The notes: generated by a model from the sequence alone, not told the origin. Positions 23,400-43,894 are shown, counted from the first letter of the stretch. The stretch is DNA of 64,000 bases from a virus (IMGVR_UViG_3300036770_002165:1-64000); one strand, 5' to 3'. Numbers and translations are program-made.

Positions 23400-23415
23400 G
23401 TAACGATTATACCAG

Positions 23416-23489
23416 TGCCGGGTACGGGAGTTGAACCCGTCTACGAGTGTTTATAAGACACCTTGCGTCAACCGGACGCATCACCCGGC
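23416..23489 (-). tRNA. tRNA-Ile, anticodon UAU
   Basis: Cloverleaf: acceptor GCCGGGT/ACCCGGC+A, D stem GCGTC/GACGC, anticodon arm GGTGT-CTTATAA-ACACT, T arm ACGGG-TTCAACT-CCCGT; CCA not encoded. Confidence 0.85.
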
Positions 23490-24857: not shown

Positions 24858-26501
24858 TCAGATTTTGCGAGATTCTGATGGTGAGTGGTGCGCCTCTACC
24901 TCTTCAGCGTGCTCAACGCTGTCATAAACACGCAAAATCCAGATGCAAGGATCGTTTTCCCAGAATTCGTCGTACTCTTTAGCCGACATTGGGACTCCAT
25001 CGTGGGTTTCACACACCATTGGGCCCACAAAACCGTTGTCAATCCCGTACTTTAACCACTCATTGAACTCCATTTTGAGTCCCCTCCTATTGTCCCGTGC
25101 AGCAACTCCCACTGCCGTGGATGAAACTACCCGATTTTGTGACCGTGTTGCAACCAGGTCCACAACCTTGGATGCTTGATTCGGGAATAGTAACGTCTCC
25201 CTCCTCATTCATCACGGTATATGGGTTGACCGCGCTCTGTGGCATATAGAAACCGGGCTGGGCCTTGGTCTTCTTTTGACGCTTTGCCAGCTTCTTACGG
25301 TACATCTGGGCTTCGTAATCCTCTTTAGAGGAGTACTCGCCGTCATCCTCTCCGTAGCCACGAACAAAGTAGGCCATGATCAGTAGTCGCCCATCCGCTT
25401 CCCAAGCTTTGAGACGCCGTAGCCAATGGCCGCACCGGCGATGGCCCCCTTGATGCCGCCGGGAACCTTGTCTGCGTCGGCCAAAACCCCAAAGCTGGGG
25501 TTGTCACCAGTACCTAAGCCAGTACCAAGGGCGTAACCGGCAGCTCCGGCGCTTAAGGCAAGCACGTTGCGGTCGAGAGTTTCCTTAACACCCTGACGGC
25601 TGATGATCGATGGCACTGTTGGCTTACGCGTTACAAGGTGCTGGACATACGGATCCATACTGCGCTTTCCAGCATGAACAGCTCGGCCTCGGTGATCTTG
25701 TGCCATATTTGCTCCTTCGACTCTTCTATTGTAGCCAAAACCGCGACCCCAAATTTTTCACGCCACCTAGAAATACCTAACTACCAGGTGATACATGTTA
25801 TTTATTGGGGTTTTCAAGGATTGTATCATTCATGATAGCAATCCATAGTTACGGTTAGTGAACTATAACGTCAGCTTACCTTTTCCTAGGTAACGGCTTA
25901 TCCAAATGACGGAATAAGTCGACCTTAGCAGGCATAAACCTGAACAAATGCAGTGTCAGATATACCCAGAATCCTAATACCGCCCAACGGCCTGTCTTAT
26001 GCCGTGACCCCCTGTGGAAAGTAGACGACAGTGTGGATAACCCTGTCGCCATGGCTAGGACATCATAAACCAACACATACAGGGCAATACCGCCCCACGC
26101 CATCGGCCCAGCCTTAGATCTAAGCGTCATGTGTCCTTAGAGGGTGTCCCTGAGGGAGCATCACGCGCTTCTTGCCAGCTTTGGTACCGGCTACGTGTTC
26201 GACAGCACCAGTCTGTGGATTAACACGGGTACGCCCACCGGCGCTACCGCTACCTTTACGCTTGCTCTTCCCCATGAGCCCCCCCCTAAATATCCCAACT
26301 ACCAGCGTCCATACGGGAACGCACCGCATCACGAATACCTTGTTTTTCAGTAATAAGCTTCTGCTTCTTGGCACGCCAGGTAGGTGGCGATTCAGAGTGG
26401 ATAACACCACCATAGCGCGACTCAAGGTTATTAATACGCTTATTAACAGACCCAAGGGCTTTATAGAGCTGTTGGTTGTTCAAAGCTTCGTATGCTGCCA
26501 T
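24858..26501 (-). CDS. Six small hypothetical genes (24858-25073, 25087-25377, 25380-25706, 25876-26130, 26120-26275, 26286-26501)
   Basis: Co-oriented small ORFs; 25876-26130 has two TM helices; 26501 start is leaderless (TGGTAATCT + 6 nt + ATG). Confidence 0.5.
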
Positions 26502-26514
26502 AACCCAAGATTAC

Positions 26515-26570
26515 CAGAATAGGGCTACTTACGGTAGCGCGCGTTTACTTCGTAGTTCAGAATAGGGCTA
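26515..26570. repeat. 13-bp direct repeat CAGAATAGGGCTA x2
   Basis: Copies at 26515-26527 and 26558-26570. Confidence 0.7.
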
Positions 26571-26859
26571 TTCAGCAGTTGAGCGTTCCTTGGGGCCCGG
26601 GTACAGCCCCCCCTTCGGGTGGGTGCGCCTCACCTAATGATAGGGGTACACACCGGTAGCCTAGCCGTGTGCGTGTGCCTATCCTAACATTAGTCCCTGT
26701 CCCTATGTGGGACTGTGGTGGTCGAGCGCCCATCGAATAGTAGTGGCCTTCGTCCTAACGGAGTTCTAAGAGGCGCGCCCCTAGGCAGGGCGTGTGACCT
26801 ACCCACCACAGGAGAGACACAGGACAGGGCGGGGTATCCCCACTTGGGAGTCCCCCAGG

Positions 26860-26954
26860 TTATCCACAGCCCTTGTGGAAGTTATCCACAGGCTACTCAT
26901 AGTTATCCACAGGCCTAGACCTGGGCCTATGAGTTATCCACAGGGTTATCCACA
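26860..26954 (+). promoter_or_regulatory. Cluster of five perfect co-oriented DnaA boxes (TTATCCACA)
   Basis: Starts at 26860, 26882, 26903, 26934, 26946 in the divergent intergenic region. Confidence 0.85.
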
Positions 26955-27037
26955 GGGCTGTGGCCAGGCCTAACATTAGGTAACGGTCATCGGGAGTTGC
27001 TATCGCCAACCCAACCCATGTTCTAAGGAGGAACATC

Positions 27038-27610
27038 ATGGCAACAGCAACACTCACCCCGAAGTACCAGCCGGTGCTCAACCTCGAAGCAAGCGAGGCG
27101 ATCAAGGTCGTCTTTGCCGCCGCTGACAAGGTCAAGGCACTCAAGGCCAGCCTGCGCGAGGGCATCACGGCGTACAACCAGACTCTGTCTGTGTTGGGTT
27201 CCGTGTATCTCGCATCGGATCTGGCCAAGGCAGACGGTATGTCGGCCAAGTCCATCGCCGCCCTTGCTGGGCGCGACGATGAGCAGCAGACACGTTACTA
27301 CCTGCGTAACGGCTGGATTCAGGCCCGTTTGGTCAACGATGGAAAGACCGCCCCGGCGGCTATCCAGACGCAGATCAACAAGGTTGCCCAGCAGGGCAAC
27401 GGTCTGACTCTCAGCCGTGTCGATGAGATCATCAAGGATCTGGTCGACAAGGGTGGTTCGTGGGCCGACTTCGTCTCTGCCGTCAAGGCTGAGACCGACA
27501 AGGTCAATGCCAAGGTCGAGCGCGCCCTCAATGCGCTCGAAGACGCCGACAGCCTGGACGCGGGCCAACTCGCCCGTCTCCAGTTGTTGGTCAGCAAGCA
27601 CACCAAGTAA
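27038..27610 (+). CDS. First early gene, helical Ala/Lys-rich hypothetical protein
   Basis: 190 aa, strong RBS TAAGGAGG, strongly C/G-ending codons. Confidence 0.8.
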   Translation: MATATLTPKYQPVLNLEASEAIKVVFAAADKVKALKASLREGITAYNQTLSVLGSVYLASDLAKADGMSAKSIAALAGRDDEQQTRYYLRNGWIQARLVNDGKTAPAAIQTQINKVAQQGNGLTLSRVDEIIKDLVDKGGSWADFVSAVKAETDKVNAKVERALNALEDADSLDAGQLARLQLLVSKHTK

Positions 27611-27778
27611 CTCTTGGTGACCGTACCTAATCGTTAGGCCACGACCTGGGGGGCTGCCTAGTGGGGATACCTCAACCGACCTAACCAACATGGTTGGGCC
27701 GGGCGTGTGTAGGCAGGGAGCCTGATTGTAAGGCGCTCTTACCTGACCGATAGCGCCCGGCCTAATCATTAGGGACAA

Positions 27779-27809
27779 GACGGGTGCGCGCCGCAACCGG
27801 GCGCCCGTC
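27779..27809 (+). ncRNA. CCGCAAY-loop hairpin, copy 1 (others 29866-29898, 33394-33426; degenerate near 37365-37396 and 44828-44850)
   Basis: 12-13 bp stems with compensatory changes and G.U pairs around a conserved 7-nt loop. Confidence 0.7.
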
Positions 27810-27862
27810 TAATCATTAGGTCGATGTGCTGTGTAGTGTCTCCGGCAGAAACGGAGTACACA

Positions 27863-28520
27863 ATGGACACAATCATCTTCACCGAAGAGGGGCGCGAGTG
27901 CCTGCGTAAGGCCCGTGCCCTTGTTACCGCAGCCGTGCGGGCGGAGAACACCTTCGCCAAGCGCATGACTGTCTTCTCCCTCTTCGCTATGTCGGAGGAG
28001 GAGTTCACGGCGAAAGAGACCGAGCGCGCCTCTGGCCTCGCCCTGTTCACGGGTGAGATCACCACGCTCATCGATGCCCTGACGGGCGATCACTGACCAA
28101 CACAACCCGTCGGAGGCACTCCACAGCACATCGGTCTAACATTAGGTCGTACACTGTCACGGTGGCATCGCCACTATCCTCTGAGGAGGAAGGAGAACCA
28201 CCATGAGCAAAGTGATTAGCGATGCCAAGCGGGCGCTCAACCGAGTGCTCGCTTACGAGCAGAACCAGCATCTCGTCCTGCGTGACGAGGTGGCCCGACA
28301 GATGGAGGCCGCCAACGAGATGGTGCGTCTGGGCAATGCCCTGACCGCCTACCGTGGGCGACTGTCCAAGAAGGCCGTGGTCACCGCTGGTTCCGATCTG
28401 GGATCGATCACCCTCAGCGTCGAGGGTGACGAGACTCTGCTCGAAGAAATCAAGAGGGCCAAGAACGCGGCCTTCCGTCTCGCCAACCGCTTCGCAGCCA
28501 ACGCTGCGGCCAACCTGTAA
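27863..28520 (+). CDS. Two hypothetical early proteins (27863-28096, 28203-28520)
   Basis: RBS GGAG/AAGGAG, biased codon usage. Confidence 0.7.
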
Positions 28521-28567
28521 CTAACCGACAGGCGGTGCCACCATGAGAGTGTACGGCCTAATCATTA

Positions 28568-28666
28568 GGCATTGACTGCCGACGTGGGCAGTCACCTTGG
28601 GCGGGTTACAACGATAGTTGTACTTGAGGGAAACCAGGGTGACTGTCCTCGTGGGCAATCGGTGCC
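28568..28666 (+). ncRNA. 33-bp RNA stem-loop
   Basis: 28568-28600 pairs with 28634-28666 with 3 mismatches and 4 G.U pairs. Confidence 0.7.
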
Positions 28667-28779
28667 CAGCCGCTACGGCGGATTAGTTGCTAGCCAGCGT
28701 GTGCTGACTGGTGAAAGGGTGAGGACAATGTGAGCGCAGCACGCTCAGTCCTGGGCATGACAATGAACATAACTGCCCG

Positions 28780-28854
28780 GCCCCCGTACTCAGATGGGAG
28801 TGACGTCTAATCATTAGACGTTTGTAGGTTCGAATCCTACCGAGGGTGCGACCA
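28780..28854 (+). ncRNA. tRNA-like element with aberrant anticodon arm
   Basis: Perfect T arm GTAGG-TTCGAAT-CCTAC, acceptor 6/7 paired, short D arm CTC/GAG, 9-bp arm GACGTCTAA-TCA-TTAGACGTT. Confidence 0.6.
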
Positions 28855-28974
28855 TCAAATGGTGCGAGGAGGGACAACAATCTCCCTTCGGTGTCAATGG
28901 GGCCTCACCAGCCGTGAATGGTTCGACCTGGGTATGTCGTAAAACTGCCCACCCTAATCATTAGTCACTAGGAG

Positions 28975-31204
28975 GTGACAGTAATGACACTGGAAGAGAT
29001 CAAAGAGTTCATCTCTCTTCTGGAGAGTGAGACTCCGACCGATCACTTCGGCTGGTTGCGTCTTCGAAAAGACGTCCTGACCTGCCGTGTGTGGTTGGAT
29101 CAGGTGCCACCGCCGACACCTGTGTGTTGGGCAGAGGTCGACCTCGAACGCATCCTCGCCAAGGCGAATGCGGCAATCACGGGGAAGGCAGCCTCTCGGT
29201 GGAGCGGGCTGTGCCTCGGCCACCACTAACCACTAGGGAGAAACCAAATGGGTGACAAACTCAGAGACGAAACGCTGGACGATGTGCCCTTGTGGCGCAT
29301 CCAGTGTGTCAAGGGCAAGGCTGGCGATGGTGGCGTCGTAGTGAACACGATCTACGCCACGAAGAAGTGGGAGCGTGTACAGCATGTACTGGACGATCAC
29401 TTCGACAACCCTGACCCACGGAAAGAGTCGTATTACCTTCGAGTCACACGACTCGTGGCGATCGACCAAGAAGAGTTCCCGCTGGGAACCTAATCATTAG
29501 GGAGGAAATCATGGCAGACAAGGTACTTGTCAGCACGACAGTGCTTCGCATGGTCGACAGTGCTCTGGCGAAGTACGAGAACCACTTCGCCAACTGTTTG
29601 GACACCATCTCAGAGGTGAAGTTCAAACTCCTGTCAGATCCGGGGGCAACCCTGGTGATGAAGGCAGCCAACATCAGAGAGGGCGACCTGATCCACGAAC
29701 GAGAGTCGGTCATGTCGGTCAGGGCGCTCGTTCAGGATGCGCTCAACCAAGAGGCTGAGTGGGAGCCGTACTACACACGGTGAGACTTTGGGAGTTGCCC
29801 GACCCCAGCGCAAGCGAAGGGCGCACTGCTCACCCCCAGCAGTAGCGACCATCGGGCAAGATCTGGGACGGCGGTGCGCCGCAACCGTGCCGCCGTCCAG
29901 ATGCGCCTAATACTAGGCGTACCCAACAAACAGAAAGGAGGCCACCGTGGCCTTTACTGTTCGAAAGCCCGTCAAGGGCTCGGGAAAGTACCCTGTGTGG
30001 GCTCAAGGTATCACGCAGGACATGGATCTCCTCCAGCGGGAGATCCTGTACACGCTCAAGTTGTTGGAGCGTGGGCGTAAGGCGGTGGTTCGCCAGTGAA
30101 CCGCCGCAGACAGAAGCGCCTAATCACTAGCCTGGCGCACCGGCTCCGTCGCCTGATGGAGCAAGAGGAAGCATACGGCGACGAACTCTCCGTCGTGGAG
30201 ATGTCGTCGTTCTACTCAACCATTCAGGCGGTGGCGTTTGCCATTGCCCGTGGTGACGAACGCAAGGCCGAGCAGTTCATCATGGCGGTCGAAATGGAGG
30301 CCCGAGTATGGGAATGATCGTCGGACTCATCGGGCTGCTGTTCTTCAGTTTCCTGCTCACCGGCCTAATCGTTAGGCTGCCCCAGATGTTCAGGGACTTC
30401 CAGGAAGTCCGTGACCGCTGGGACGATGACTCCTTCTGGGACGACGACTACCGCAAGGAGTTGTAATGCAGGAAGACTTCATCAAGACCTTCGGGCCTTG
30501 TGTTGTCATTCTCCATGGTCCGTCAATGGAAAAGCATTACGGGCCATTTGAGTCTGGCAAACAAGCGATCGAATGGATGAACCATCAAATCATCGTCGGT
30601 AATGTTCGCAACTTCTCTGTTGATCGGTTGCGTACACCGTACGTTGAGAGAGCCTACGATGACTGGTGGGCAGGCGACTGGCACCAGATCAACATCGTGG
30701 ATCAGGAGTACCCCAAGGACTCCTGGGTCAAGACCAAGCGCCGAGTCTGGCGACGCTGGCGGCGTCAGGCAGACAAGGTGTTGGAACAACTCGTCTAATC
30801 ATTAGACAGAAGGGAGCACCGTGAACATCAAGGTGTCACGCACAGGGCTAATCGACGCCCTCAAGAAGTCGATCAAGACTCGTGAGGCTGCTATTGCCGA
30901 ACAAGAGAAGGCTCACAAGGAGTTCGAGAAGGCTCAGAAGGAGTACGAGGATAAGGTCCTCGCTTACGTCACCTCTGGCAAGGCGACCAACCCCAAGTTG
31001 TTCGTCCGATACGACGGTGAAGCCACTGTGACTGTCGAACTTCCTGCGGCCCTCAAGAAGGGCCCCAAGCAGAAGGATGTGCGCAGGTACTACAGCGTCC
31101 ACGAGATCCAGGAGATCAAGTCGGCTATCGCCCTGCTCGAACTGTCCGATGAGGACACCATCTCTGCGTCTGCGTACAAGAACGTGGCGCAGTACCTCGC
31201 CTAA
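28975..31204 (+). CDS. Run of small early hypothetical genes (28975-29229, 29248-29493, 29511-29783, 29947-30099, 30096-30317, 30308-30466, 30466-30798, 30821-31204)
   Basis: RBS or translational coupling for each; 29947 and 30308 ORFs read manually, the latter has an N-terminal TM helix. Confidence 0.65.
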
Positions 31205-31271
31205 TCATTAGGCAACCACAGGGGGTGCGCATCTCACACGCACACAACAGCAACAAACGAAAGGGGTCTCA

Positions 31272-31982
31272 GTGACCATTACAGAAACTTTGCCGCAGTG
31301 CTGGCAAGACGTGGCAGACGCAGTGGCTGCTGGTATCAAGAACATCATCCTGTACGGGCCTCCTGGTACAGGCAAGACGTTCACCGGCATCCACTTCGAG
31401 ACCAACCAGCCAGCACAGCGTGTCGTCTGTAACGAGGACATGACTGCGGCTGACGTGACCGGGTGCTATTTCCCCGGCCCCGACAACCAGTTCGTCTGGA
31501 ACGACGGTGCCGTGCTCAAGGCATGGAAGACGGGTGCTCGTGTCGTGGCTGACGAGATCGACCGTGCGTCTGGTGACGTGCTGTCTCTCTTGCTTGCCAT
31601 GTTCGACTCGCCCGAGTCAGCATCGTGGACCCACCCGTCCACTGGTGAGATCTTCCGTCCGCACGCTGAGTTCAGCGTGTTCATGACCACCAACGTGGAG
31701 GACATGGACGAGTTGCCCACGGCACTCAAGGATCGCTTCCCTGTTGCGATCCGCATCAACCAGCCGCATCCGACTGCTCTGCTGTCGTTGTCGCCTGACC
31801 TCCGTCAGGCTGCCAGCCTCAGTGCTGACCGTCGTGGTGAGCAGCGCATCTCCATGCGTACCTGGAAGGCCTTCGACCAGATGCGCAAGTCCCTCGATGA
31901 CGAGCGTGCTGCCGCTCTCATCTTCCGTGACATGGCTGTCGACGTGCTCGACGCCATTCGCATCAACGCAGTCACCGCCTAA
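31272..31982 (+). CDS. MoxR/CbbQ-like AAA+ ATPase (pair 1)
   Basis: GPPGTGKT, VVADEIDRA, FMTTN, LPTALKDRF. Confidence 0.9.
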   Translation: MTITETLPQCWQDVADAVAAGIKNIILYGPPGTGKTFTGIHFETNQPAQRVVCNEDMTAADVTGCYFPGPDNQFVWNDGAVLKAWKTGARVVADEIDRASGDVLSLLLAMFDSPESASWTHPSTGEIFRPHAEFSVFMTTNVEDMDELPTALKDRFPVAIRINQPHPTALLSLSPDLRQAASLSADRRGEQRISMRTWKAFDQMRKSLDDERAAALIFRDMAVDVLDAIRINAVTA

Positions 31983-32010
31983 TCATTAGGCCAAACAGAA
32001 AGGGGTCATC

Positions 32011-33387
32011 ATGACCAACGGCTCGGCTTATCCCGAGTTCCAGGAGCGTGATGACGTAGAGGTCGGTACGTGGGATGTTCGCCCGTCGATCACCCCACGT
32101 ACCGACTTGGTTAACCGCATCATGGCAGTGCCTCTTGGTACTGACCCCAACTCACGTGCGATCCGTAACCGTGAGACGATGCGTGCCAAAGTAAGTCCTC
32201 AGGAACTTTACATTCCTATTGACTTGCCTCCGTCATTTCCTCTCATGGATGCTTGCGAGACTGTGCGTCTCAACGCACTGCTCAAGCACCAGGGCGTAAC
32301 ACACGATGCTGACAGCATCGACGCACGTGGTCTGTCTGCCATGGTCGATCGTGCCCTTGCTAGTCGTGACGTCAACACTCTTGTTGACCTAACGATTAGG
32401 CACTACGGCACCAAGGCTGGTAAGTCAGTGTCTCGTGCGATCAAGGATGCGTCTGACAAGCATGGGCTGCCCCAGGCCAACGAGTACTTCAAGGGTCTGC
32501 GTAGGGTTCTACGTGACAACTGTGGTAACTGGTCATACAGCTACTACCGGCGTTACTTGTCCGACAATGACCCGTCATCTTTGGCATCGCACGGGCACGA
32601 TGATGTGGTAACGATACCTCACGGTTATCGCTACACCACTGGGCTTGCTGCTGCTGTCAATCGTTTCCTCGAACGTGGTGCCGATCCGACTGCCGAGGTC
32701 AAGCCCAACGAGGTTCCTGGTGATCTCCCCGAGGCTGGTGACATGCCCACCGACTTCGCACCACTCAGGCTTCAGCATCTGCCCAAGCCTGAGCGTGTCG
32801 CTGGTCGTATGGGTCGCAAGCGTTCGGCTACCAACATCGGTGTCAATCCACGCCGTATCCACCGCTACCTGGTTGATCCTGAGAAGCGCATCTTCGACCG
32901 CCGCATCCGTGGCATTGGTGGTGTCGTTCTCATCGACCAGTCTGGCTCGATGCATCTCAGTACCGACGAGATCTGGGACATCATCAACGCCAGCCCTGGT
33001 GCCACCATCATCGGCTACAGCCACAGCGATGGTGCCCCGCACAACTGCTGGGTGCTTGCTGAGAACGGCAAGGTAGTCAGCGAGGTGCGTGACGGCAACG
33101 GTGGTAACGGTGTCGACGGCCCTGCCTTGCTGTACGCTCTCAGCAAGCGCAAGAAGGGTGACCCACTCGTCTGGGTGTGCGACGGCCACGTCACTGGTCG
33201 TTACGACCTACACACTCGTGAGTTGGCCAAGTGGTGTGCTCAGGTAGTCTCCAAGTACAACGTCCACATGTGTGAGGACGTGCCCGAGGCTGTCGAAGCA
33301 CTCAAGCAGGTGCGTGACGGGCGCAAGTTGCCTATGCGTATGGTCGGCGCAGTCAAGTCTGCTGGCCTCAGGCTCGCACACGCCTAA
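32011..33387 (+). CDS. vWA-domain partner of AAA+ (pair 1)
   Basis: MIDAS LIDQSGSM, GGNGVDGPAL, VWVCDG. Confidence 0.8.
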   Translation: MTNGSAYPEFQERDDVEVGTWDVRPSITPRTDLVNRIMAVPLGTDPNSRAIRNRETMRAKVSPQELYIPIDLPPSFPLMDACETVRLNALLKHQGVTHDADSIDARGLSAMVDRALASRDVNTLVDLTIRHYGTKAGKSVSRAIKDASDKHGLPQANEYFKGLRRVLRDNCGNWSYSYYRRYLSDNDPSSLASHGHDDVVTIPHGYRYTTGLAAAVNRFLERGADPTAEVKPNEVPGDLPEAGDMPTDFAPLRLQHLPKPERVAGRMGRKRSATNIGVNPRRIHRYLVDPEKRIFDRRIRGIGGVVLIDQSGSMHLSTDEIWDIINASPGATIIGYSHSDGAPHNCWVLAENGKVVSEVRDGNGGNGVDGPALLYALSKRKKGDPLVWVCDGHVTGRYDLHTRELAKWCAQVVSKYNVHMCEDVPEAVEALKQVRDGRKLPMRMVGAVKSAGLRLAHA

Positions 33388-33452
33388 TGGTTAGGACGGG
33401 CGTACGCCGCAATCGTGCGCCCGTCCAGCCCTAACAACCAAGGAGGGACAGT

Positions 33453-34676
33453 ATGTCCGTCACACAAGGTATGCCCAACGGCGTGCTCGTTTACCTGGAT
33501 AACGAAACAGGTAACTGGGTCATGTCGGTCAACAGATTCGTCAAGAAGAAGATTGACGCAGAGCAGCGTGCTGAACTCCTTCAGCAGGCTAAGGAGTTTC
33601 TCCGTGAAGCACAGAGCCAGGGTTTCCCAGTCGTTGATCCTGACGACGATGACGCAATCTCCGAGCGTATCCCGTCGATTGGCGAAGAAGTCGAAGGACT
33701 TGAGTCACTCAATCGGGTCCTCGAAGGTGGTCTTGAAGAGGCGGCGTCGATCCTCCCTAACCTCTGGGATTGGCTCGTCGGTATCACCGAAACGCCGTGG
33801 CAGCCCGACGAGGACTAATGATTAGGAGGGCTTAGATGCCTCTTAGCCCACAGTTCGCAGACCTTAACAAAGGTCTAGAACAAACACTCACCACACAAAT
33901 CAAAAACAGTGTGGACGAAATGTTGTCGATGACTGCTGGTCACCAGATAGTCTCGGCATCAGAAATGGCCGACAAGTTGCTTGACCTACGCATCCTTGTC
34001 AGCCAACTAGAACACCAAGGAGAACCACATGGTGACGATTGACGATGTGTGGAAGCACATCAGCAACAAGATTGCGAACAAGGTAAACGACCCGTTTGCT
34101 GAGTTGTTCGCAATGGTGATCCCCGTCGATACAGAGGGCAACTTCTGTAAGGAGATCAACTCGGACTGCGAGGAGTACGAGGGCGATAGTTACACGCTCC
34201 TTCGCAAGTTGAGTAAGACCACTGAACTCCTGCCCAGCGGGACGTTTGCGTATGCCTGCCCGGCTAAGATTAGGCAGGTTGATCTGGCTGGGCGAAACGC
34301 CGATGAGATCGACGCCGAGGAGTTGGAGGAGTTGCGAGCCAGCACGACTCCCACTCAGGTGCTGATGATCAACCTCGTCCATGCGGTCGAGGCTAAGGAC
34401 GACGGCCATCCTGGTGACATGGTCATCGAGAGCGGCGTCTACTACATCGATGAGAACCGTTTCGAGGCGTTGCCCACGCTGGTAAACGGTTCCGACGACC
34501 AGGGGCAGGACAGCAAGGGCCCGCTGACCATTGCTCTTGGTGCTCTCGCACTTGCGTGGGCACTCAGTAACGACAGGCTTGGTGACGTGGGTCGAATGCT
34601 CAAGGAGTCATTGGACCTGGCCAAGAAGTCGTTGGAACAGGCAGAAGCAGCTTTCAACAATCTGCCGAAGCCCTAA
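33453..34676 (+). CDS. Three hypothetical acidic proteins (33453-33818, 33836-34042, 34029-34676)
   Basis: ORFs with RBS. Confidence 0.65.
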
Positions 34677-34692
34677 TCATTAGGAGGCAACA

Positions 34693-35103
34693 TTGCATTC
34701 CAACATCTCGATGCTAGTTATATTCCCTAACGGCATCGTTGCAGTTCCTGAGGAGTACATGCCTGAGGACACACCCATGCACGAGGTCATCAACGCACAA
34801 GTCGGAGGCCACTTCGACTCTGTGCGTCCGATGCGTCGTGAACAGAAGTTCATTGGCTATGTCAATGACGAGGGATTGCTTATGGGTCTTGAGCCTAACG
34901 CTCTTGCCAGCGCAGTCTTCGGACGGTTCCTTGCGGGGCCGTGCGTCATCGTTGGTACAGCCAATGAGTTCGGGGAAGAGAACGGTGAGGATTACAACCT
35001 CATGGATAACGATCTCGACCTCATCATGCGCATGGCACAGCCACTTCTTATGTGGCGTGACAGCGTTGACCAGCAGAAACAAATTGAACAACTGAGAGGA
35101 TGA
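34693..35103 (+). CDS. DUF3846-like protein
   Basis: QVGGHFD..GYVNDEGLLMGLEPNALAS..LAGPCVIVG. Confidence 0.65.
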   Translation: MHSNISMLVIFPNGIVAVPEEYMPEDTPMHEVINAQVGGHFDSVRPMRREQKFIGYVNDEGLLMGLEPNALASAVFGRFLAGPCVIVGTANEFGEENGEDYNLMDNDLDLIMRMAQPLLMWRDSVDQQKQIEQLRG

Positions 35104-35104
35104 C

Positions 35105-35578
35105 ATGAACCTTTCCATGGAGATTGCCGAGTGGGTCAACAAAGACCTGCGTGAGTCAATCGACGAGACGCTGCGTTACCGAGCCACCCGCTTGTTCGCA
35201 GTTAACAAGACAGCCAACGGATACGAGCGTCGCCTCGTGGACTCCGACCCTGATCCGTACGATCTGATCAGGCGGCTGCCCAAGCCTGACAAGGTGGATG
35301 CCTACTGCCTCGTCATGACTGGGTGGATGACTCCCATCGCTGATGGTGACGACGACGAGCAGATCAACAGCCCGTACAACGACGAGCGTGTGCGTGTGCG
35401 TCTCTGCGCCGCTGTGTCCGACGCTGGTGTGTCGGTGCGTGTACAGCGTTGGGTCAACGGTTACCCGGAGGGTGACTCGTTCGAAGATGGGGGCGAGGGT
35501 TCTTTCCCCGATGCTCTCCGTCTGTGGTGGGACGCCACGCAAGGGCGTAACAACCTGTTCGAACTGATGGGTGACTGA
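35105..35578 (+). CDS. Hypothetical protein
   Basis: 157 aa ORF with RBS. Confidence 0.65.
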   Translation: MNLSMEIAEWVNKDLRESIDETLRYRATRLFAVNKTANGYERRLVDSDPDPYDLIRRLPKPDKVDAYCLVMTGWMTPIADGDDDEQINSPYNDERVRVRLCAAVSDAGVSVRVQRWVNGYPEGDSFEDGGEGSFPDALRLWWDATQGRNNLFELMGD

Positions 35579-36039
35579 TGTTCCGTAAGACCATTATCGC
35601 CCTCTCTGTTGCTGGTGGGCTAATGGTTAGTGCGTGTGGGGGTGAGACTGTGTACGTCACGGTCTCACCCTCCACTACGGAGCCAGCCTCAACTACAACG
35701 GTGCGTAAGACAACCACGACGTTGGCTACCACGCCACCGTTGGCCACCCGCCCACCATCAAACGTAAGCACGTATGACCCCGATGCTTACGACACTTTCC
35801 TTTGGTCAAGTGTTCGTGACTTCTGGTGGTTGTTCACTGAAGAACAGCTGCTCCAGATGGGCCTGCTTGTCTGCGAGGAGTTCGATCGTGGGTCAACTCT
35901 CGACCAGGTCACCATGGCTTTGGTGGAGGTTCTTAACGACAGCAATACGGCGTACCTAGCCGAGGGTATGGCTGCGGTTACCGCTGGCGCTCTGACCTAC
36001 TTGTGCCCCGAGCACAGTTGGTGGCTTAGCACCATCTAA
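35578..36039 (+). CDS. Lipoprotein, DUF732-like
   Basis: Lipobox VSAC, Thr/Pro linker, G..VC..FDRG and A.TYLCPEH. Confidence 0.7.
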   Translation: MFRKTIIALSVAGGLMVSACGGETVYVTVSPSTTEPASTTTVRKTTTTLATTPPLATRPPSNVSTYDPDAYDTFLWSSVRDFWWLFTEEQLLQMGLLVCEEFDRGSTLDQVTMALVEVLNDSNTAYLAEGMAAVTAGALTYLCPEHSWWLSTI

Positions 36040-36056
36040 TCACTAGGAAGGATCAC

Positions 36057-36830
36057 ATGATCATCCTGTACAACAAACACACTGGTGAGCACTTCAACGC
36101 TGACGACGTGGTGCTTATCAACACCAGAGACATGGACAGCCACGTGCTGTCCGAGTTAGAGGACGGCAACCACGACGTGCTCGCAGACTTCGCTGAGACT
36201 TCTGTGGCCACGCCGTTCTGGGAGGCGTTCGACCCTTTCGCTGAGCGTAAGGACAATCCCAACTATGGGTACGGCCCAACAATCCTGGTATAGGAGGAGA
36301 TAACCATGGGTATGGATGTGTATGGCAAGAAGCCGCGCACTGAGCCCGGCGGATACTTCCGCAACAATGTCTGGTGGTGGCGTCCGCTGTGGCAGTACTG
36401 CGTAGAGCAGCACCCCGACATCATTGACCCCAAGACTGCTGAGGCAGGCCACTTCAATAGCGGCGCTGGCCTCAACGCAGGTAAGTCCAGGGCCTTGGGT
36501 AAGGCGCTGTTGGAGGATATCTCCAATGGGGTCACCGACAAGTGGCGTGAGGAGTACTACGCAGCGATCGCCACGCTCCCGATGAGAGAGTGCACACTCT
36601 GTGGTACAACGGGTATCCGCACCGACGACGTAGGTAAGGATCACGGCATGGACACACGAGAGCTAGACCCTGAGACAGCGACCCTCTTGGGCCGCACACA
36701 TGGATGGTGTAATGGTTGCAATGGTGAAGGACACATGGAGCCATGGGAGGCCGGTTACCCATTCGAAGTAAGCAACGTCCGTGAGTTCGCAGAGTTCCTG
36801 TTGAACTGCGGAGGATTCGAGATTCACTGA
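36057..36830 (+). CDS. Two hypothetical proteins (36057-36293; 36306-36830 with a CxxCxxxG pair)
   Basis: YFRNNVWWWRPLW; CTLCGTTG and CNGCNGEG. Confidence 0.65.
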
Positions 36831-37123
36831 TGATCCCTGAGAACATTGAAGATCTGAGCGAGATCGAGTTGGCTGCTTTGTTGCGACCACTCAATCCGCA
36901 CCAGAAAGACATACTCAAGCGACGCCTCGGCCTAGCTGGGTATGAGAAACAAACCTTGCAAGAGGTTGCAGACAACATCGGCAAGGATGTAGATTACGTC
37001 CGCTTGATGGAAGTCAAGGCAATGGTTGACCTCGGTTGGGTCAACCTCGTCAAGAAAGTTGAGAACCACAATGAAGCCATACTTGAACACCCAAGTAACC
37101 GTTCAGTTCCAGCGACTGAGTGA
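36830..37123 (+). CDS. Stand-alone sigma-70 region 4 HTH protein
   Basis: LNPHQKDILKRRLGL....QTLQEVADNIG....YVRLMEVKAM matches sigma r4 consensus. Confidence 0.75.
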   Translation: MIPENIEDLSEIELAALLRPLNPHQKDILKRRLGLAGYEKQTLQEVADNIGKDVDYVRLMEVKAMVDLGWVNLVKKVENHNEAILEHPSNRSVPATE

Positions 37124-37423
37124 AACACCCATTACTCCTGAGTGTCGCACCATTAACGAAGGTGAGGACAACGAATTCCACATCTTCCAGTTTAATGTTG
37201 AAGAAACTCTTCCTCACAAGGTTCAGTTCTTCTTCAATACCACTCAGGAGTTCATCAACTTCCTCAACGATCTTCGCAGTACATGCGAGAACAAGATCTG
37301 GGATCTGACGGCAATGCCGAGCGAGTACGAGTACGACTACGCTCGTGAGCCGTTCTGACCCCCAGACAACCCGGCGTCGCAATCGTGCCGCCGTCCAATC
37401 CACACACAAGTAGGAGAACCCCT

Positions 37424-38221
37424 ATGCGTACCTCTGTTCAGAGGGTTACGCCAGACATGGCACGGACCATGCTGGCAACAAACACCAAGAACCGCAAGCT
37501 GCGGCGTGCGCGTATCAACCAGTACGCCGAGCAGATGAAGCGTGGCCAGTGGCAGGCTACCGGGGAGGCGATCAAGTTCGCCAAGGACGGTACTCTGCTC
37601 GATGGTCAGCACCGTCTCCATGCGGTTATCGAAGCCAACGTTGAACTCGACATGCTCGTGGTGCAGGACCTCGACTTGTCGACGTTCAAGGTCATCGACT
37701 CGGGCCTTACCCGCACTCCGGGTGATGCCCTCCAGTTGATGGGGATCAGCAACAGCAACCATAAGGCTGCTGCTATCCGCATGTACATCGCTGCTGATGC
37801 TCAGATTCCGATTGACAAGAGCACTGCACTGACCAACCTCATCACCCGCACCGATATCACCAATTTCGTTGCTGTTAACGATGATCTGGTCAACGATGCT
37901 GTTAACGCAGCCCGTACCGTGTACAACAACTGTCGGGGTAACCGCCCCGCTTGGGCTGCTCTGTACATGATGATCACCAAGAAGTACGGACAGGCTGAGG
38001 CCGAGATGTTCTTCCAGTCAGTTGCGGAGGGTACGAATATGTCCCCTGGTGACCCGCGTCTTGCCCTGCGCAACTGGGCGGTTCGCAACACCAGCAACCC
38101 GTACCGTGGCGAGCATCTGTATGCGTACTGCCGTGCCTACAACGCTCACCGAGCGGGTGACAACATGCACTTGCTGCGTCTTCCTATCCCGGCGCATCGC
38201 AAGCCTCCCGTCGTCGACTGA
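37424..38221 (+). CDS. ParB-like N-terminal (DGQHR) domain protein
   Basis: VTPDMARTML..N..NR, MKRGQW..TGEAI, LLDGQHRLHAVI; start 37424 after AGGAG. Confidence 0.7.
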   Translation: MRTSVQRVTPDMARTMLATNTKNRKLRRARINQYAEQMKRGQWQATGEAIKFAKDGTLLDGQHRLHAVIEANVELDMLVVQDLDLSTFKVIDSGLTRTPGDALQLMGISNSNHKAAAIRMYIAADAQIPIDKSTALTNLITRTDITNFVAVNDDLVNDAVNAARTVYNNCRGNRPAWAALYMMITKKYGQAEAEMFFQSVAEGTNMSPGDPRLALRNWAVRNTSNPYRGEHLYAYCRAYNAHRAGDNMHLLRLPIPAHRKPPVVD

Positions 38222-39033
38222 TGGACGGGTTCCGTATCACCGAGTCGACAGCTGACTTCTACTGGCAGATCATCCATGATCATCCGGAGGAGTTCAAACT
38301 GGGGCTCGTTGAATCACAGTTGTCGACCGGGGTCACCTACAATGGTGACCCCGAGTCGGCACAATCAATCGCATATGACTTTGGCCGTACTTTCGGTGAA
38401 GCGATGCACGCCCTGTGGGAGAACCTAGATATGGATCACCCACTGTGGAACGACGACGCTTACTGCGATCATGGCCCGAGTGTCTACGAGAGCTATTGCC
38501 CCAAATGCACAGGACAAGAGGATGCCTGAATTTCACGTTTCATCTAAGCGAATTGTCTACACAAAATTCGCTGCACTAGCACTGACAATCTTGCTCGCCG
38601 GGCGTATCATGCTCAGCGACCCCAACGTGGTGTACCGGTACATCGGTACTCTTGCGTTCATCGGATTCAACATCCGAGCCATGATGTTGGCCGTGTACAT
38701 CCAGTACCGTGGTAAGCACGGTTGGGGTAGTACGGTTGATATCCCAGATAATCATTAGGAGAACCACCAATGAGAGCTAACCCGTACGTACTTACCTTTG
38801 ACGACGGTGCAGACGGTGGCCCAGAGCATTTGTTGTGGGTACTCACCGGTTTCTACTGCAAGTTCATGAAGCAAGGCGAGTTGGTATTCGAAGGGGTTAT
38901 CAAGGAGGTGGAGAGCTCCTTGGGGGAGGTACTAGTAGAGATACCCATTGACGAGAGGCCTGACCTAAGCGGCCCAGATCGTCGCCGCCTACTTGACATC
39001 TACGAAGACTTTGACGAAGTGATCTACCAATGA
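38221..39033 (+). CDS. Three small hypothetical proteins (38221-38529, 38522-38758 membrane, 38770-39033)
   Basis: Coupled ORFs. Confidence 0.55.
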
Positions 39034-39042
39034 GGACCACAA

Positions 39043-40482
39043 ATGCTTACGTTGCCAACTCTGGCTGTACCACTTCTAGCGCACCAGCAGGAGGCGGTGC
39101 AGTTCGTACTTGACCATCAGCAGGCTTACCTAGCATTAGATATGGGGTTAGGTAAGACAGCCTGTGCCATAGGAGTTGTGGAGTCTGCTCGTGTTATCGG
39201 GCAGACTCCTGCTCTTCTGGTAGTGCCCCCGTCGTTGCGTACGACGTGGATCAAGGAGTTGCAGAAGTTCGCTCCGCATCTCAAAGTGTTTGTAATCAAG
39301 GGTATGGAGACATACCCATTACCACCTGCTGATGTGTACATCATCGGTGACTCCGTGATCCGTAGTTGGGTAGACAAGGACGACCCCCACTCGCTACGGC
39401 ACCAGATCAAAGTGCTAGTCGTTGACGAGGCCCACCGTGTTAAGAACATGGGCTCTAGTCGTACTCGTGCTGTCATCGAGCTAGCCAAGACGATCCCTGG
39501 TTTCAAGATCCTCATGTCCGGTACCCCTACTCCTAACGGTAGGAACATGGAGATGGGTTCGCAGATCGAGATCCTCGGGGCGTCTGCCTGGGCCGCTGTC
39601 GGTGGTAAGGGTAAGTTCTGGAACTACTACTGCCCCGTGGAGCGTGACGACAAGGGTCGCCTTAACCGTTACGGTAAGCGTGCCAACATCGATTCACTTG
39701 GTCTGCACGAGGCAATGACAGGCTCGTTTATGATGCGCCGACGACGTGAGGAAGTGCTAAACCTGCCACACAAGGGTAGATCAGCAATTCATATCGAAGG
39801 ACGTGGTAAGGCTGTAAGTGATTACATCCTTGCCGAAGAAGATCTTGTTGCGTATCTAGCTGGCGAGGGGTTGCCATTCCGTGCCGCTATGCGCAACGAG
39901 GCACTCGTCAAGCTAACCACCATGCGGCGGTTGGCTGGCGAGTGCAAAGTTCGTGGTGTTATCGACCACGTGAAAGAGCTGCTCGTTGAGACGGCGCACG
40001 ACGATGTACCCATGGGTATCTTTATCGTTGCTGAGCACCACTCGGTGATGAGCCCCATCGCTGAGGGCCTTGACAAGTACGGCGTGGTCATGTACAACGG
40101 AACAATGGGGGATAAGGAGAAAGCATCAGCCGTGGAGGACTTCACGTCTGGTGCCGCTCGGGTCATGGTTGGCCAGATCAAGTCGGCGGGTGTCGGCCTG
40201 ACACTCCATGGTGATGGTCGTAACCACCGTGTCATTATCGCCCAACTACCTTGGTCACCTGCAGATATCCAGCAGGCCGAGGACAGGCTGCATCGCATCG
40301 GGCAAACATCCGATGTTGAAGTAGAGATCTGCCTTTCCAGCATCGACAACTCATGGACAGTAGATGAACGTCTGTGGGGATTGCTAGAGGGCAAAGCATT
40401 CTCAGCTAGTGAACTCATCGATGGTAAGGGTGAGTTCTTACTAGAGGAGATACAAGACAGCATCATTGATTCTTACAGATAA
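39043..40482 (+). CDS. SNF2-family (SMARCAL1/HARP-like) helicase/ATPase
   Basis: DMGLGKT, VVDEAH, MSGTP, AGVGLTL, QAEDRLHRIGQ. Confidence 0.9.
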   Translation: MLTLPTLAVPLLAHQQEAVQFVLDHQQAYLALDMGLGKTACAIGVVESARVIGQTPALLVVPPSLRTTWIKELQKFAPHLKVFVIKGMETYPLPPADVYIIGDSVIRSWVDKDDPHSLRHQIKVLVVDEAHRVKNMGSSRTRAVIELAKTIPGFKILMSGTPTPNGRNMEMGSQIEILGASAWAAVGGKGKFWNYYCPVERDDKGRLNRYGKRANIDSLGLHEAMTGSFMMRRRREEVLNLPHKGRSAIHIEGRGKAVSDYILAEEDLVAYLAGEGLPFRAAMRNEALVKLTTMRRLAGECKVRGVIDHVKELLVETAHDDVPMGIFIVAEHHSVMSPIAEGLDKYGVVMYNGTMGDKEKASAVEDFTSGAARVMVGQIKSAGVGLTLHGDGRNHRVIIAQLPWSPADIQQAEDRLHRIGQTSDVEVEICLSSIDNSWTVDERLWGLLEGKAFSASELIDGKGEFLLEEIQDSIIDSYR

Positions 40483-40760
40483 GGAGAGATATGCCCATTA
40501 TCAAATCATCAACAAACGGAGATGACATTACAGTTGTTGTCTTCTCCAAGGAGGAGGCCGAAGCCTTCGTAAACATGATGTGGAATGCATCTTTCAAGAA
40601 GAGCAAGGATGTTAAGGAATCTATCGAAAAGCTAGAAGAAATGTTCTATGCATTCGGTATTCCTTACCCTCCTGAGTGACGAAGGTCACAAAAATAATCC
40701 CACAACTTTCCTGTCTTATGGATAGGATGAACCTCAACCACCAACTGAAAGGAACCACCA

Positions 40761-41966
40761 ATGGTTGCAGCCAAAGCCCTCCGTGAGGGCATGGAAGTAG
40801 TCATCAACTCCGGGCCCTACACCGGACTGATAGCACGGGTCATCGATCCCACCGTCTTCCCCGACGGGCACCCCGACCAGCGCAAGATCCGTGTTGATAT
40901 CGCTGGTGTCGGTGAGACGCTGATCATTCCCAAGCAGCTCAGCATCACCGGCATGGCCCCCGTGGTGCACAGCGCACCAACTGTGGTTGCCAGTACTGCA
41001 CCAGTGCACGTGCCAACCGTGGCCGTGTCCAAAACGCCTATCACATCTCTTGACGATCCTGCCCTTGACCGTTGGCGTCCACAGCGTGCCAGCGTTGTCA
41101 AGGAGTACGTATCTCGAGAGTTGCCTGGCGGTATCAAAGATGTCGATGCGCTAGTCAAGTACTGGCGTGACGACCGCATCGATGGGTACGCCCCTAACAT
41201 CGGCCTGGTTGGTGACACCCAGTCCGGTAAAACAATGCTGGTTGAGGTTCTCGCCCACCTTGTGGCCAAGGAGATGGGGTTGTCTAAGCCCTTGCCGATC
41301 TTCTTGCTCGCCGGTAACAGCGCCATTACCGACCACGATATGTTCGGCCAATACCGTCCTGACGACACGGGTCAACTCGTGTGGATGGAGGGTGTGGTTG
41401 CCCTAGCCGCACGCATCGGCGGAATCCTGTATCTCGACGAGGTCAACGCAATGCCTGGTGCAGTCACCGCGGCTTTGCACCCGTTAGCTGACGATAGACA
41501 CCAGTTCGTTAACATCCGTAAGCCTGTCGATGACGGGCACGGTGGCATGATGCCTGATGTTGTCAAGGCATCTACTGACCTGTGGATCATGTCGACGTAC
41601 AACCCTGGCTATGCCGGTATGAGCAAGGCTAACGAAGCATTCCTCGCACGGTTCCGCTGGTTGCAGTGGAACTACGACGAGGAAGTTGAGAAGAAGTTGA
41701 TCAAGTCGCCTGGTGTCAGGTTGCTTGGCCAGTCTCTCCGCAACGCCCGTGAGGGTCGTGCTATCTCAACACCGGTGGGCACATCCGCACTGCAGCGTCT
41801 TGAGCGTGACATCGCCATGTTCGGCGTTGAGTACGCACTCTGGTCGTTCTGCGGGCAGTTCACCAGTAAGGCCGAGCGCACTGTTGTCGAAACCCTAATC
41901 GAAGACCGAAGCATCCGGCTCATGATTACCACAGAAGTCGAGGGGACAGTTAAGGAGCAAGCATGA
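40761..41966 (+). CDS. MoxR/CobS-like AAA+ ATPase (pair 2) with N-terminal KOW/SH3-like extension
   Basis: GDTQSGKT, LYLDEVN, STYNPGYAG, NEAFLARF. Confidence 0.9.
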   Translation: MVAAKALREGMEVVINSGPYTGLIARVIDPTVFPDGHPDQRKIRVDIAGVGETLIIPKQLSITGMAPVVHSAPTVVASTAPVHVPTVAVSKTPITSLDDPALDRWRPQRASVVKEYVSRELPGGIKDVDALVKYWRDDRIDGYAPNIGLVGDTQSGKTMLVEVLAHLVAKEMGLSKPLPIFLLAGNSAITDHDMFGQYRPDDTGQLVWMEGVVALAARIGGILYLDEVNAMPGAVTAALHPLADDRHQFVNIRKPVDDGHGGMMPDVVKASTDLWIMSTYNPGYAGMSKANEAFLARFRWLQWNYDEEVEKKLIKSPGVRLLGQSLRNAREGRAISTPVGTSALQRLERDIAMFGVEYALWSFCGQFTSKAERTVVETLIEDRSIRLMITTEVEGTVKEQA

Positions 41967-43894
41967 CAGACATTGATGAGCCCCAGGAAGTAGTGCCCGG
42001 AGTAATGACCCGCAAGGAGTTACAGAACTCACGATCTAGGCTACGTAACTGGATCACACGAGATGCTGCTAACTCTGAGAAGCGTGCTCGTAACCTCGCG
42101 GCACAGCTGCTAGCAACTGCGGATAACAACTACCTTCACCGCTCCCGTAACGAGAGGATGAAGTCAGACGCGCTAATCAATAGCGTTAGCAATCTGGCTA
42201 GCCGAGTGCTAGTGAGTATGAACGTTACAGCACGGGTTAAAGTGTCCCACGGGTCGGCTAAGTACTCCGGTAGGGCTGTTCAAGCTTACACGGACTTTGA
42301 CACGATTAACATTCAGGTTGATCCATCGTCGTTTAACACCAGCAGCATTGAGAGCGTGTCTGAGCTAATCCACGTAATCAAAGGCCTTGTGTACCACGAG
42401 GGTGGGCATATCGCATGGACTACGCCGATGTCATCGTTGTGTGACAGGATTGGGTGCAGCCGTAACCACGATATCGATGGTAAGCAGTACCCGTTGGTGT
42501 ATATGCAGCAGTCGTGGAACGTTCTTGAAGATCAGCGTATGGAACGCGCCATGGTTGTTACCTCTCCGATCATGGCTAAGTACTTCACGAGTATCGTTGC
42601 GAAGTATGCCATTGACCCGCAGCTTCCTGGCCTAGCTTGGCCGTGGCTTGTTGGCCGTACGTATTTGCCAAAGGAATTGCGGCGTGCTGTACGAGCCGAG
42701 GCTGAGCGCATGGAGGCTGCCCACCTTATACCGAGGATGGAGTCCGCTATCTTGGCTTACTGCAATGCCAGCGATGCCAGGACAATGCACGATGCTGTTA
42801 TCGAGATGCACATCTGTCTTATGGAATGGCTTTCTTCCAACAACGGCAAGATCAGCGAGGTTGACCGTCACTCTGGCCTTTTCAAAGATGACAAGCGCAG
42901 TTCACAGGAAATGCCAGTTCCCCCAACGCCAATGGAACCAGACGACAACGGTGATTCAAGCGAGGGGGGCAGCCCGTCTGACGACGCTGGTGAGGACACG
43001 CAGGAGAAAGACGAGAACGACGGTGACTCAGATAGTGATAAGGATTCCACCGACAAGTCGGCGGGTGATGGTGTTAGTGATAAATCGATCAAGGAACAGC
43101 TTGAGCAGATCGTAAACCAGAACATCAGTTCAACCAACATTAACGAGGTTAATGAAGTTATGGCTGATATCAACACCAGCCAGGGAATGATGGCTATTCG
43201 TGACGACACAATCAAGCAGATGAATAACACTGAGGTAACACTGAGCACCGAAGTCCGTAACCGTATGCTTGATGTGCTTGACCGCTTGGTTGTTCAAGTA
43301 GATCCGTCTTGGATGTTCTATCGGGAGAACGGTGTGCTAGACCCCACCGCCTACACGACACGTGAGCCTGGTGACATGAACTTCTGGTCAGGCATGGATG
43401 GGGATAAGGGCAACGGCCATGATCTCGCTGTGTCTCTGCTTATCGACTCATCAGGGTCGATGGGCAATGAGATCGAGAACGTCAGCATCATGGCTATGGG
43501 TATCCGTAAGGCGTGCGAGCATTACGATATCCCCTGCACTATCACCACGTTCTCTGAGGACGTACGCTTAGTTGCTGCCGGTGACGAAGAATGCGGGTTT
43601 GTCAAGGTAGAAGCTGGCGGTGGTACGCAAGTGTTCGATGCCATGACCATCCTTGATGACCAGCGTTACGGTAAGCATAACCACCTCGTAGTCATCCTTA
43701 CGGATGGTGAATGGAGCGACCTAAAGGACGTGCGTATCTGGGGTAAACCAACGCGCCACATCATGATCGTCGGGTACAACGTAGATCATTCAATCATTGC
43801 TGATAAGGGCGCTAATAGCGCCATTACCATTAGCAATATCAACGAGCTAGCGCCGCTAGTCACAAACTCCCTGGCTGGGTATTTCGGTAGCTAG
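41963..43894 (+). CDS. CobT-like HExxH metallopeptidase-acidic linker-vWA protein (pair 2)
   Basis: YHEGGH, WNVLEDQRME, D/E/S-rich linker, LIDSSGSM, GGT, ILTDG. Confidence 0.85.
   Translation: MTDIDEPQEVVPGVMTRKELQNSRSRLRNWITRDAANSEKRARNLAAQLLATADNNYLHRSRNERMKSDALINSVSNLASRVLVSMNVTARVKVSHGSAKYSGRAVQAYTDFDTINIQVDPSSFNTSSIESVSELIHVIKGLVYHEGGHIAWTTPMSSLCDRIGCSRNHDIDGKQYPLVYMQQSWNVLEDQRMERAMVVTSPIMAKYFTSIVAKYAIDPQLPGLAWPWLVGRTYLPKELRRAVRAEAERMEAAHLIPRMESAILAYCNASDARTMHDAVIEMHICLMEWLSSNNGKISEVDRHSGLFKDDKRSSQEMPVPPTPMEPDDNGDSSEGGSPSDDAGEDTQEKDENDGDSDSDKDSTDKSAGDGVSDKSIKEQLEQIVNQNISSTNINEVNEVMADINTSQGMMAIRDDTIKQMNNTEVTLSTEVRNRMLDVLDRLVVQVDPSWMFYRENGVLDPTAYTTREPGDMNFWSGMDGDKGNGHDLAVSLLIDSSGSMGNEIENVSIMAMGIRKACEHYDIPCTITTFSEDVRLVAAGDEECGFVKVEAGGGTQVFDAMTILDDQRYGKHNHLVVILTDGEWSDLKDVRIWGKPTRHIMIVGYNVDHSIIADKGANSAITISNINELAPLVTNSLAGYFGS

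Follow-up and report, generated by a model that had tools for sequence, protein, structure and literature searches.

A palindromic site repeated along the early arm of a phage genome keeps its places but changes its word among relatives

Why does one short palindrome recur along a single arm of a viral genome, often fused to stop codons, and what might read it? The locus lies in a stretch of 64,000 nucleotides (hereafter the window) that makes up bases 1-64000 of the IMG/VR record IMGVR_UViG_3300036770_002165, a genome of 95,597 bp that is rated complete, has a 67-bp terminal overlap and is labelled G000 here. A model that saw the DNA letters and nothing else (the sequence-only reading) had listed 27 starts of a CTAA-N2/3-TTAG palindrome in the early region and proposed a symmetric, stoperator-like site that acts at the DNA level under strong selection. 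The array is real and strongly selected, and the proposal is borne out by its position in the arm, by its conservation and word switching in relatives and by the codons of one intragenic copy. New here is that relatives carry arrays at the same junctions, built of different palindromes, with DnaA boxes and hairpins unchanged beside them.

G000 encodes a tail sheath, a portal and a large terminase and is therefore a myovirus. Its closest cultured relative by terminase is Streptomyces phage BRock, with 46% identity in the large subunit. Because the genome has two WhiB genes and one DUF732 domain, the host is probably actinobacterial. Neither a tyrosine nor a serine integrase was found in the genome by searches whose positive controls worked. 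Genes run rightward only at ~26.6-46.5 kb and leftward everywhere else.

At the core of the array stands the 11-mer CTAATCATTAG, which occurs in 11 exact copies, all within 27,762-34,683 and none elsewhere in the genome. Shuffled sequences are expected to contain 0, and the count agrees with the sequence-only reading. In its more general form, CTAA-N3-TTAG is found 16 times against 0.57 expected, and CTAA-N2-TTAG four times against 0.70 expected. A scan of the full genome confined all of these strict copies to 26.6-35.6 kb, extending to the whole record the earlier remark that the late and replication blocks seemed free of the motif. Four copies carry one mismatch (30120, 36036, 38748 and 42173), with no one-mismatch match outside the arm. 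The remaining three sites (26634, 29226 and 29907) are marginal, about 2 to 3 two-mismatch matches being expected by chance in the stretch; the degenerate copy at 26634-26644, with two mismatches in the divergent control region, coincides with a site position in two relatives, G003 and L109. All 27 starts proposed earlier are real positions, given one base early; 20 are strict copies. Counted with near-copies there are ~25 sites, none of them outside the rightward early arm and the control region that goes with it. Conservation extends 1-2 bases past the 11-mer to give (G)CCTAAT-C-ATTAGG(C); the palindrome spans 11-15 bp and is perfect or nearly so. Information is limited to the palindrome ±2 nt, and the sequence flanking the sites showed no other conserved element beyond it.

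In the first ~10 kb of the arm almost all gene junctions have a site, and the array thins out to 15 kb. Of the 27 copies, about 21 fall between genes or across a stop codon and six lie inside genes. The control region holds three: the marginal copy just described, an N2-spacer copy left of the DnaA boxes (26684-26693) and another immediately to their right, 58 nt ahead of the first early gene (26970-26979). A copy with the centre TCG stands 16 nt past the stop of this gene, 27038-27610 (27627-27637). Further intergenic copies are exact at 27762-27772 and 28558-28568 and of the N2 type at 28136-28145; an exact copy lies immediately 3' of a hairpin with a CCGCAAC loop (27809-27819), another 19 nt ahead of the start of gene 28984-29229 (28954-28964), and a marginal N2-type copy behind a second CCGCAAC-loop hairpin (29907-29916). 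Copies lie 9-60 nt upstream of start codons. In the interval 28136-36046, 9 of 24 successive gaps measure 406-449 bp (P = 0.0014 against random placement), and some intragenic copies seemingly divide long genes into steps of this size; G003 is without such spacing.

Ten copies supply a gene's stop codon, as the sequence-only reading had noted, nine through the TAA in C-TAA and one through TAG. They comprise a two-mismatch copy ending gene 28984-29229 (29226-29236); exact copies at 29490-29500, which also forms part of the next ribosome-binding site, at 30795-30805 (gene 30466-30798), at 31201-31211 (gene 30821-31204) and at 31979-31989 (a MoxR-like gene); a copy ending gene 32011-33387 (33384-33394); an exact copy with a G centre ending gene 33453-33818 (33815-33825); an exact copy that ends gene 34029-34676 and enters the next ribosome-binding site (34673-34683); and one-mismatch copies ending genes 35578-36039 (36036-36046) and 38471-38758 (38748-38758), the latter being the TAG case. 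The gene map likewise confirmed that several copies run into the ribosome-binding site of the following gene, and some overlap GGAGG.

The intragenic copies lie in genes 30096-30317 (30120-30130, one mismatch), 30308-30466 (30365-30375), 32011-33387 (32389-32399), 34029-34676 (34264-34273, N2 spacer), 35578-36039 (35620-35630) and 41963-43894 (42173-42183, one mismatch; the outermost and weakest member). It is true, as had been pointed out, that the five N3 copies among them all use the only stop-free frame; this frame is logically forced, however, and the point therefore carries no weight as evidence of selection. A codon-level null does speak for selection: synonymous resampling of the arm genes predicts 0.11 strict intragenic copies where four are seen, and none of 2000 resamplings reached four.

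We then compared G000 with its relatives, which are uncultured genomes found by a search with the sheath protein. The window's word is absent from the three complete relative genomes checked first. Each relative instead has its own palindrome in the equivalent arm, beginning at its own DnaA-box cluster. G003 uses GCTAG-N3-CTAGC, with 26 of 27 copies inside a 15.6-kb arc. The word of G004 is TGTCTCA-N3-TGAGACA, found 15 times in 77.7-89.5 kb, once more at 96.0 kb and once, flankless and chance-like, at 33.2 kb, and G018 and G019 share TGTAAC-N-GTTACA. The window's core word reappears with T..A flanks in G016, G017 and G015 (46% GC; 21 copies in G016), and L109 (44% GC) has CCTAAC-S-GTTAGG. Overall, the relatives hold four other words and two close variants of the window's word, the core word being common to phages of 46% and 52% GC. 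The portal and terminase of G003 are ~90% identical to those of G000, yet the array word differs.

Megablast of cultured phages with the arm gave zero matches, a search for relatives with the 458-aa protein of the arm returned nothing, and an IMG/VR scan with the G004 word produced mostly single chance matches, plus one neighbouring DUF6011 protein. BRock has a plus-strand early arm at its left end, yet without a palindrome array. A TTGACA-containing word recurs in the early arm of BRock, in contrast to that of G000. A 23-bp palindrome of G005 was rejected as an array member, its covarying 7-8-bp extensions marking a structural hairpin of a different class. The control region of G004 (77028-77370, L086) contains three copies of GTGACA-N2/3-TGTCAC, distinct from its array word.

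What the relatives share is the placement of the sites. G000, G003 and L109 have collinear control regions, in which three sites take matching positions around the DnaA boxes. Four junctions hold a site in G000, G016 and G003, each in its own word: 5' of the MoxR-like gene (31201-31211) and at the stops of the MoxR-like gene (31979-31989), the 458-aa gene (33384-33394) and the 215-aa gene (34673-34683). Hairpins follow two of these junction sites, and their sequence is kept between G000 and G003 while the adjoining palindrome has been replaced. The first ~4 kb of the arm has almost no genes common to G000, G003, G004 and G016, whereas the flanking modules are conserved. The site at 32389-32399, within the 458-aa gene, falls on the same four codons (CTA-A..-.TT-AG.) in G000 and G016, whose proteins are only 44% identical; G003 also has L-I-V-R at this place, written as TTG ATC GTG CGC, and no site. 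This comparison of synonymous positions agrees with the sequence-only reading, and the intragenic site in the 458-aa gene reads as codon-level evidence of selection.

The elements beside the sites behave differently. The gap at 26.5-27.0 kb contains five perfect DnaA boxes (26860-26954, plus strand) at the head of the array, and array sites interleave with the boxes of the control region at conserved positions. DnaA-box clusters stand at the arm head in every relative (seven boxes in G003, six in opposite orientation in G004, and two each in G016 and L109), and the box is identical in all array phages despite the changing array word. GC-rich hairpins with a conserved CCGCAAY loop lie directly beside copies at 27779-27809, 29866-29898 and 33395-33425, the one behind the 458-aa gene keeping its sequence in G003. 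Another type of hairpin, GGGGTGCG...CGCACA, at about 31221-31248, is kept in G000, G016 and G003. The control regions of G000, G003, G004, G016 and L109 also have a 12-bp near-palindrome, AATAGGGCTATT, located in G000 at 26519-26530 and 26562-26573; it may be a promoter or operator common to the whole group and independent of the array word.

One exact copy (28807-28817) has an unusual setting. It lies in a tRNA-like gene, 28780-28849, which ARAGORN calls tRNA-SeC(tca) and Rfam does not recognize. The gene aligns to a canonical tRNA-Arg(CCT) of G003 (L082:11883-11956), with which it agrees in the T arm and over most of the acceptor stem, and its anticodon arm is replaced by a 9-bp stem built of the palindrome. 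At gathering thresholds, Rfam matched no family in the window; a tRNA-Ile(TAT) at 23415-23489 (minus strand), kept in G003, G004 and G005, also went unreported at these thresholds.

Is the palindrome read as DNA or as RNA? Within a genome the half-sites are invariant and the central 1-3 nt vary. The palindrome extends past its core no more than chance predicts, so no structure appears to be under selection. At the centre, G016 has C in 7 copies and G in 9, L109 has C in 3 and G in 4, and at a given position close relatives may carry opposite central bases. As RNA, the 13-mers are predicted to fold with only -0.1 to -1.7 kcal/mol in three lineages. Fixed half-sites, the missing extension, the lack of strand bias in relatives and the weak RNA hairpins therefore argue for sites in double-stranded DNA.

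The explanation we favour, to which we give about an even chance of being correct, is that the sites form an operator array for a symmetric DNA-binding protein controlling the early arm. The operator would be the 13-15-bp form of the palindrome, and its reader a symmetric, most likely homodimeric, sequence-specific protein. Because each relative has its own word at the same places, the copies are probably docking sites for a fast-evolving protein; and because related phages keep the sites but changed the word, this protein would most likely be encoded in the phage's own fast-evolving early module and co-evolve with them. Its most likely effect, we infer, would be coordinated control of the whole arm, in which early transcription is shut off or paced by occupation of the control region and by blocking or silencing at each junction.

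Several observations weigh against an operator array. Ten of the 11 exact copies in G000 have C as their central base on the plus (sense) strand, and one has G, hinting at strand asymmetry. A 2-nt spacer, which a rigid dimer would tolerate poorly, occurs in four copies. One copy is the anticodon arm of the tRNA-like gene, so that the word is also carried on a stable RNA, and several copies adjoin a structured CCGCAAY-loop hairpin. Finally, Pfam and PHROG scans of ~45 G000 proteins revealed no regulator common to array-bearing relatives. We gave up the idea that the N2 variants are -10 promoter elements, since full N3 sites occupy these positions in G003.

Some of these observations are what would be expected if the copies acted in early mRNA, each as a hairpin with a 5-bp stem and a 3-nt loop between stop codon and next ribosome-binding site. 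Such a hairpin would be bound by an RNA-binding protein or endoribonuclease for processing, stabilization or translational repression, with the tRNA-like gene as a stable competitor. The sense-strand C, the anticodon-arm copy, the adjoining structured hairpins and the position between stop codon and ribosome-binding site, with some copies overlapping GGAGG, all fit this account. We nevertheless regard it as unlikely: a conserved stem with a variable loop is the reverse of most RNA-hairpin recognition, the predicted hairpins are marginal, stem extensions do not covary, relatives show no orientation bias, and the three control-region sites interleave with DnaA boxes at conserved positions. Alternatively, the copies could serve mainly as recombination joints for cassette swapping between co-infecting relatives, protein binding being secondary. 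Sites do mark gene boundaries within a small-gene block, the first ~4 kb of the arm is nearly devoid of shared genes between conserved flanks, and there are precedents in the deletions and insertions between Cluster O repeats (PMC4351075) and in the shuffling mediated by the PeSL elements of T4-type phages (PMC2839356). Recombination would, however, leave unexplained the dyad symmetry, the conserved intragenic site, the control-region sites and the word switching at junctions between conserved genes. Moreover, 11-13 bp is very short for homologous exchange, and unlike in PeSLs no sigma70-type promoter accompanies the element, which makes this use improbable.

A host protein (of the Fur family, another global regulator or a nucleoid protein) could bind the entering DNA to recruit, titrate or shield it. 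The arm must work before any phage protein exists, and the Pfam and PHROG scans found no phage binder. The Fur box is a 19-bp consensus of 7-1-7 inverted repeats, and the inner 9 bp of the palindrome agree with the core of that consensus. Agreement ends there: the 19-bp 7-1-7 pattern does not fit, the flanks are C/G, and relatives of G000 use unrelated words. Close relatives, with portal and terminase about 90% identical, differ in the word while the DnaA box stays constant, which makes a conserved host reader of the Fur kind unlikely; in addition, phages of 46% and 52% GC share the core word. We accordingly rate a host reader as doubtful and no longer retain the host Fur-family protein that the sequence-only reading had listed. 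There is also little probability that the array and the DnaA cluster form a new phage genome-organizing domain. Here the product of 27038-27610 would be the specificity factor that coats or loops the first ~10 kb in ~420-bp steps, timing or shielding early expression and the start of replication, and factor and sites would all switch together between lineages. Very improbable, last, is a role as promoters in which the palindromes would be extruded as DNA hairpins (stem of 5-7 bp, loop of 3 nt), as in coliphage N4, and a non-host RNA polymerase, delivered with the phage or made by it early on, would start separately at each small gene. Their geometry equals that of the N4 early promoters (PMC4496689), copies lie a short way upstream of start codons, the template strand has G at the centre of 10 of the 11 exact copies, and no sigma70-type promoter-like site was found at 26300-36500, against 3.8 expected in shuffles. 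Against such promoters, the largest open reading frame (ORF) encodes 1082 aa and resembles a tail fibre, and PF00940 (T7-like RNA polymerase) gave no match in a search in which the control was silent too. G016 and L109 have copies in both orientations, the loops of G003 and G004 are variable, some copies are intragenic, and there are ~25 copies as opposed to three in N4.

If an operator array has a phage-encoded reader, which gene might supply it? The sequence-only reading had named three candidates in the arm. One, described as ParB-like at 37424-38221, did not hold up: ParB_N (PF02195) has no match in the genome (the control matched 11 of 14 genomes), and the corresponding ORF, 37385-38221, matches no Pfam family and only an unknown PHROG and is absent from array-bearing G004 and G016. 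The second, a helix-turn-helix ORF at 44301-44675, was discarded since it is missing from array-bearing G003 and G016. Pfam and PHROG scans of the arm turned up no helix-turn-helix repressor, no direct search with the stoperator-binding gp71 having been made.

The third candidate, the first early gene (27038-27610), matches no Pfam or PHROG family and has no PDB sequence match. Its AF2 model is all-helical (pLDDT 84), structural comparison gave nothing significant (Foldseek best E 0.45, VIA Z 5.7), and no homologue was found, even by profile, in G003, G004, G005, G016 and G018, four of which bear arrays. The gene belongs to a small family whose best-conserved segment resembles a helix-turn-helix, and L109, with its near-identical word, carries a 35% homologue. 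The corresponding place in G016, G003 and G004 is taken by genes of about this length, for which homology to the family or to one another could not be shown; a profile-profile comparison of the three first-gene families was collinear and non-significant (probability 1-7%), and a second AF2 model was of low confidence. The earlier proposal thus gained no recognizable fold and no shared homologue, and 27038-27610 is a weak candidate. A WhiB protein encoded at 46942-47472 (minus strand) has a C-terminal helix-turn-helix-like tail and occurs in all relatives with only 32-37% identity; we rejected it because G000 and G016, which share the core word, have different putative recognition helices in this protein. 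The second WhiB gene is at 49669-50043.

Among characterized systems, the G000 array is of a kind known in phages and mechanistically unsolved. Among published cases it comes nearest to the dyad repeat found in Cluster O mycobacteriophages such as Corndog, a 17-bp TGTTCGG-N3-CCGAACA of 7-N3-7 layout with more than 30 copies per genome (PMC4351075). The copies lie mostly in short intergenic gaps, about a third or fewer being intragenic, and show no clear link between orientation and transcription; binder and function are unknown, and the phages are not obviously temperate (PMC4351075). Both systems have invariant inverted half-sites around a variable 3-bp centre and tens of copies, mostly intergenic with an intragenic minority (six of 27 in G000). 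They differ in the word and in the half-sites, which are shorter in G000 (5-6 bp). The Cluster O repeats spread through the genome, whereas the G000 array occupies one arm, 26.6-42.2 kb of 95.6 kb, starting from the DnaA cluster, and has many copies fused to stop codons. Five Cluster O genomes also share one word, whereas the relatives of G000 have switched words.

The best-studied case of one protein stopping initiation and elongation at many sites is that of the Cluster A stoperators (L5 gp71 and the TipsytheTRex repressor), 13-bp sites found at the early promoter and in small gaps between genes (PMC9283540, PMC6550527). Stoperators lack symmetry, bind a monomer, follow the direction of transcription and are distributed genome-wide in temperate phages with an immunity repressor (PMC9283540, PMC6550527). 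G000 shares with them the many copies in short intergenic spaces and in the control region. Its sites, by contrast, are palindromes that keep to one arm and have no consistent orientation, and no integrase was found. The OB operators of IncP plasmid RK2 occupy promoter-proximal, distal and intragenic places and have a central C/G. They are 13-bp palindromes at which KorB, a ParB-family CTP-dependent clamp, silences many operons over long range (PMC11790492). A palindromic site of 13-16 bp is common to both, and G000 differs in lacking a ParB_N domain.

Two further systems resemble the array in layout. The PeSL cassettes of T4-type phages stand between a stop codon and the next Shine-Dalgarno sequence among small, variable early genes that undergo modular shuffling, and each combines a strong sigma70 promoter with a stable terminator hairpin (PMC2839356). 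G000 likewise has a repeated element between stop codon and next Shine-Dalgarno sequence in a small-gene block, but with no promoter consensus, no conserved flanks and a hairpin energy of -1.7 to -5.1 kcal/mol. Coliphage N4 has three hairpin early promoters with fixed orientation and specific loop bases, used by a 3,500-aa virion polymerase (PMC4496689). Both have a short inverted repeat around a 3-nt centre on the first-expressed DNA, and geometry alone matches: orientation is mixed and loops are variable in relatives of G000, and its genome has no giant ORF.

The related genomes amount to a clean natural experiment, in which at least five words appear at the same junctions beside unchanging elements and with codon-level selection; the binder should therefore be within reach of a co-variation analysis or a simple pull-down. 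Should the sites switch off the whole early arm, they would represent a general form of temporal control in virulent actinophages and would provide a set of mutually independent operator/regulator pairs.

A small rightward block interrupts the leftward arm at L009:9461-10384 (genome 73461-74384, plus strand). Two of its products have 92-98% identity among G003, G004 and G005, much more than is average for the genome.

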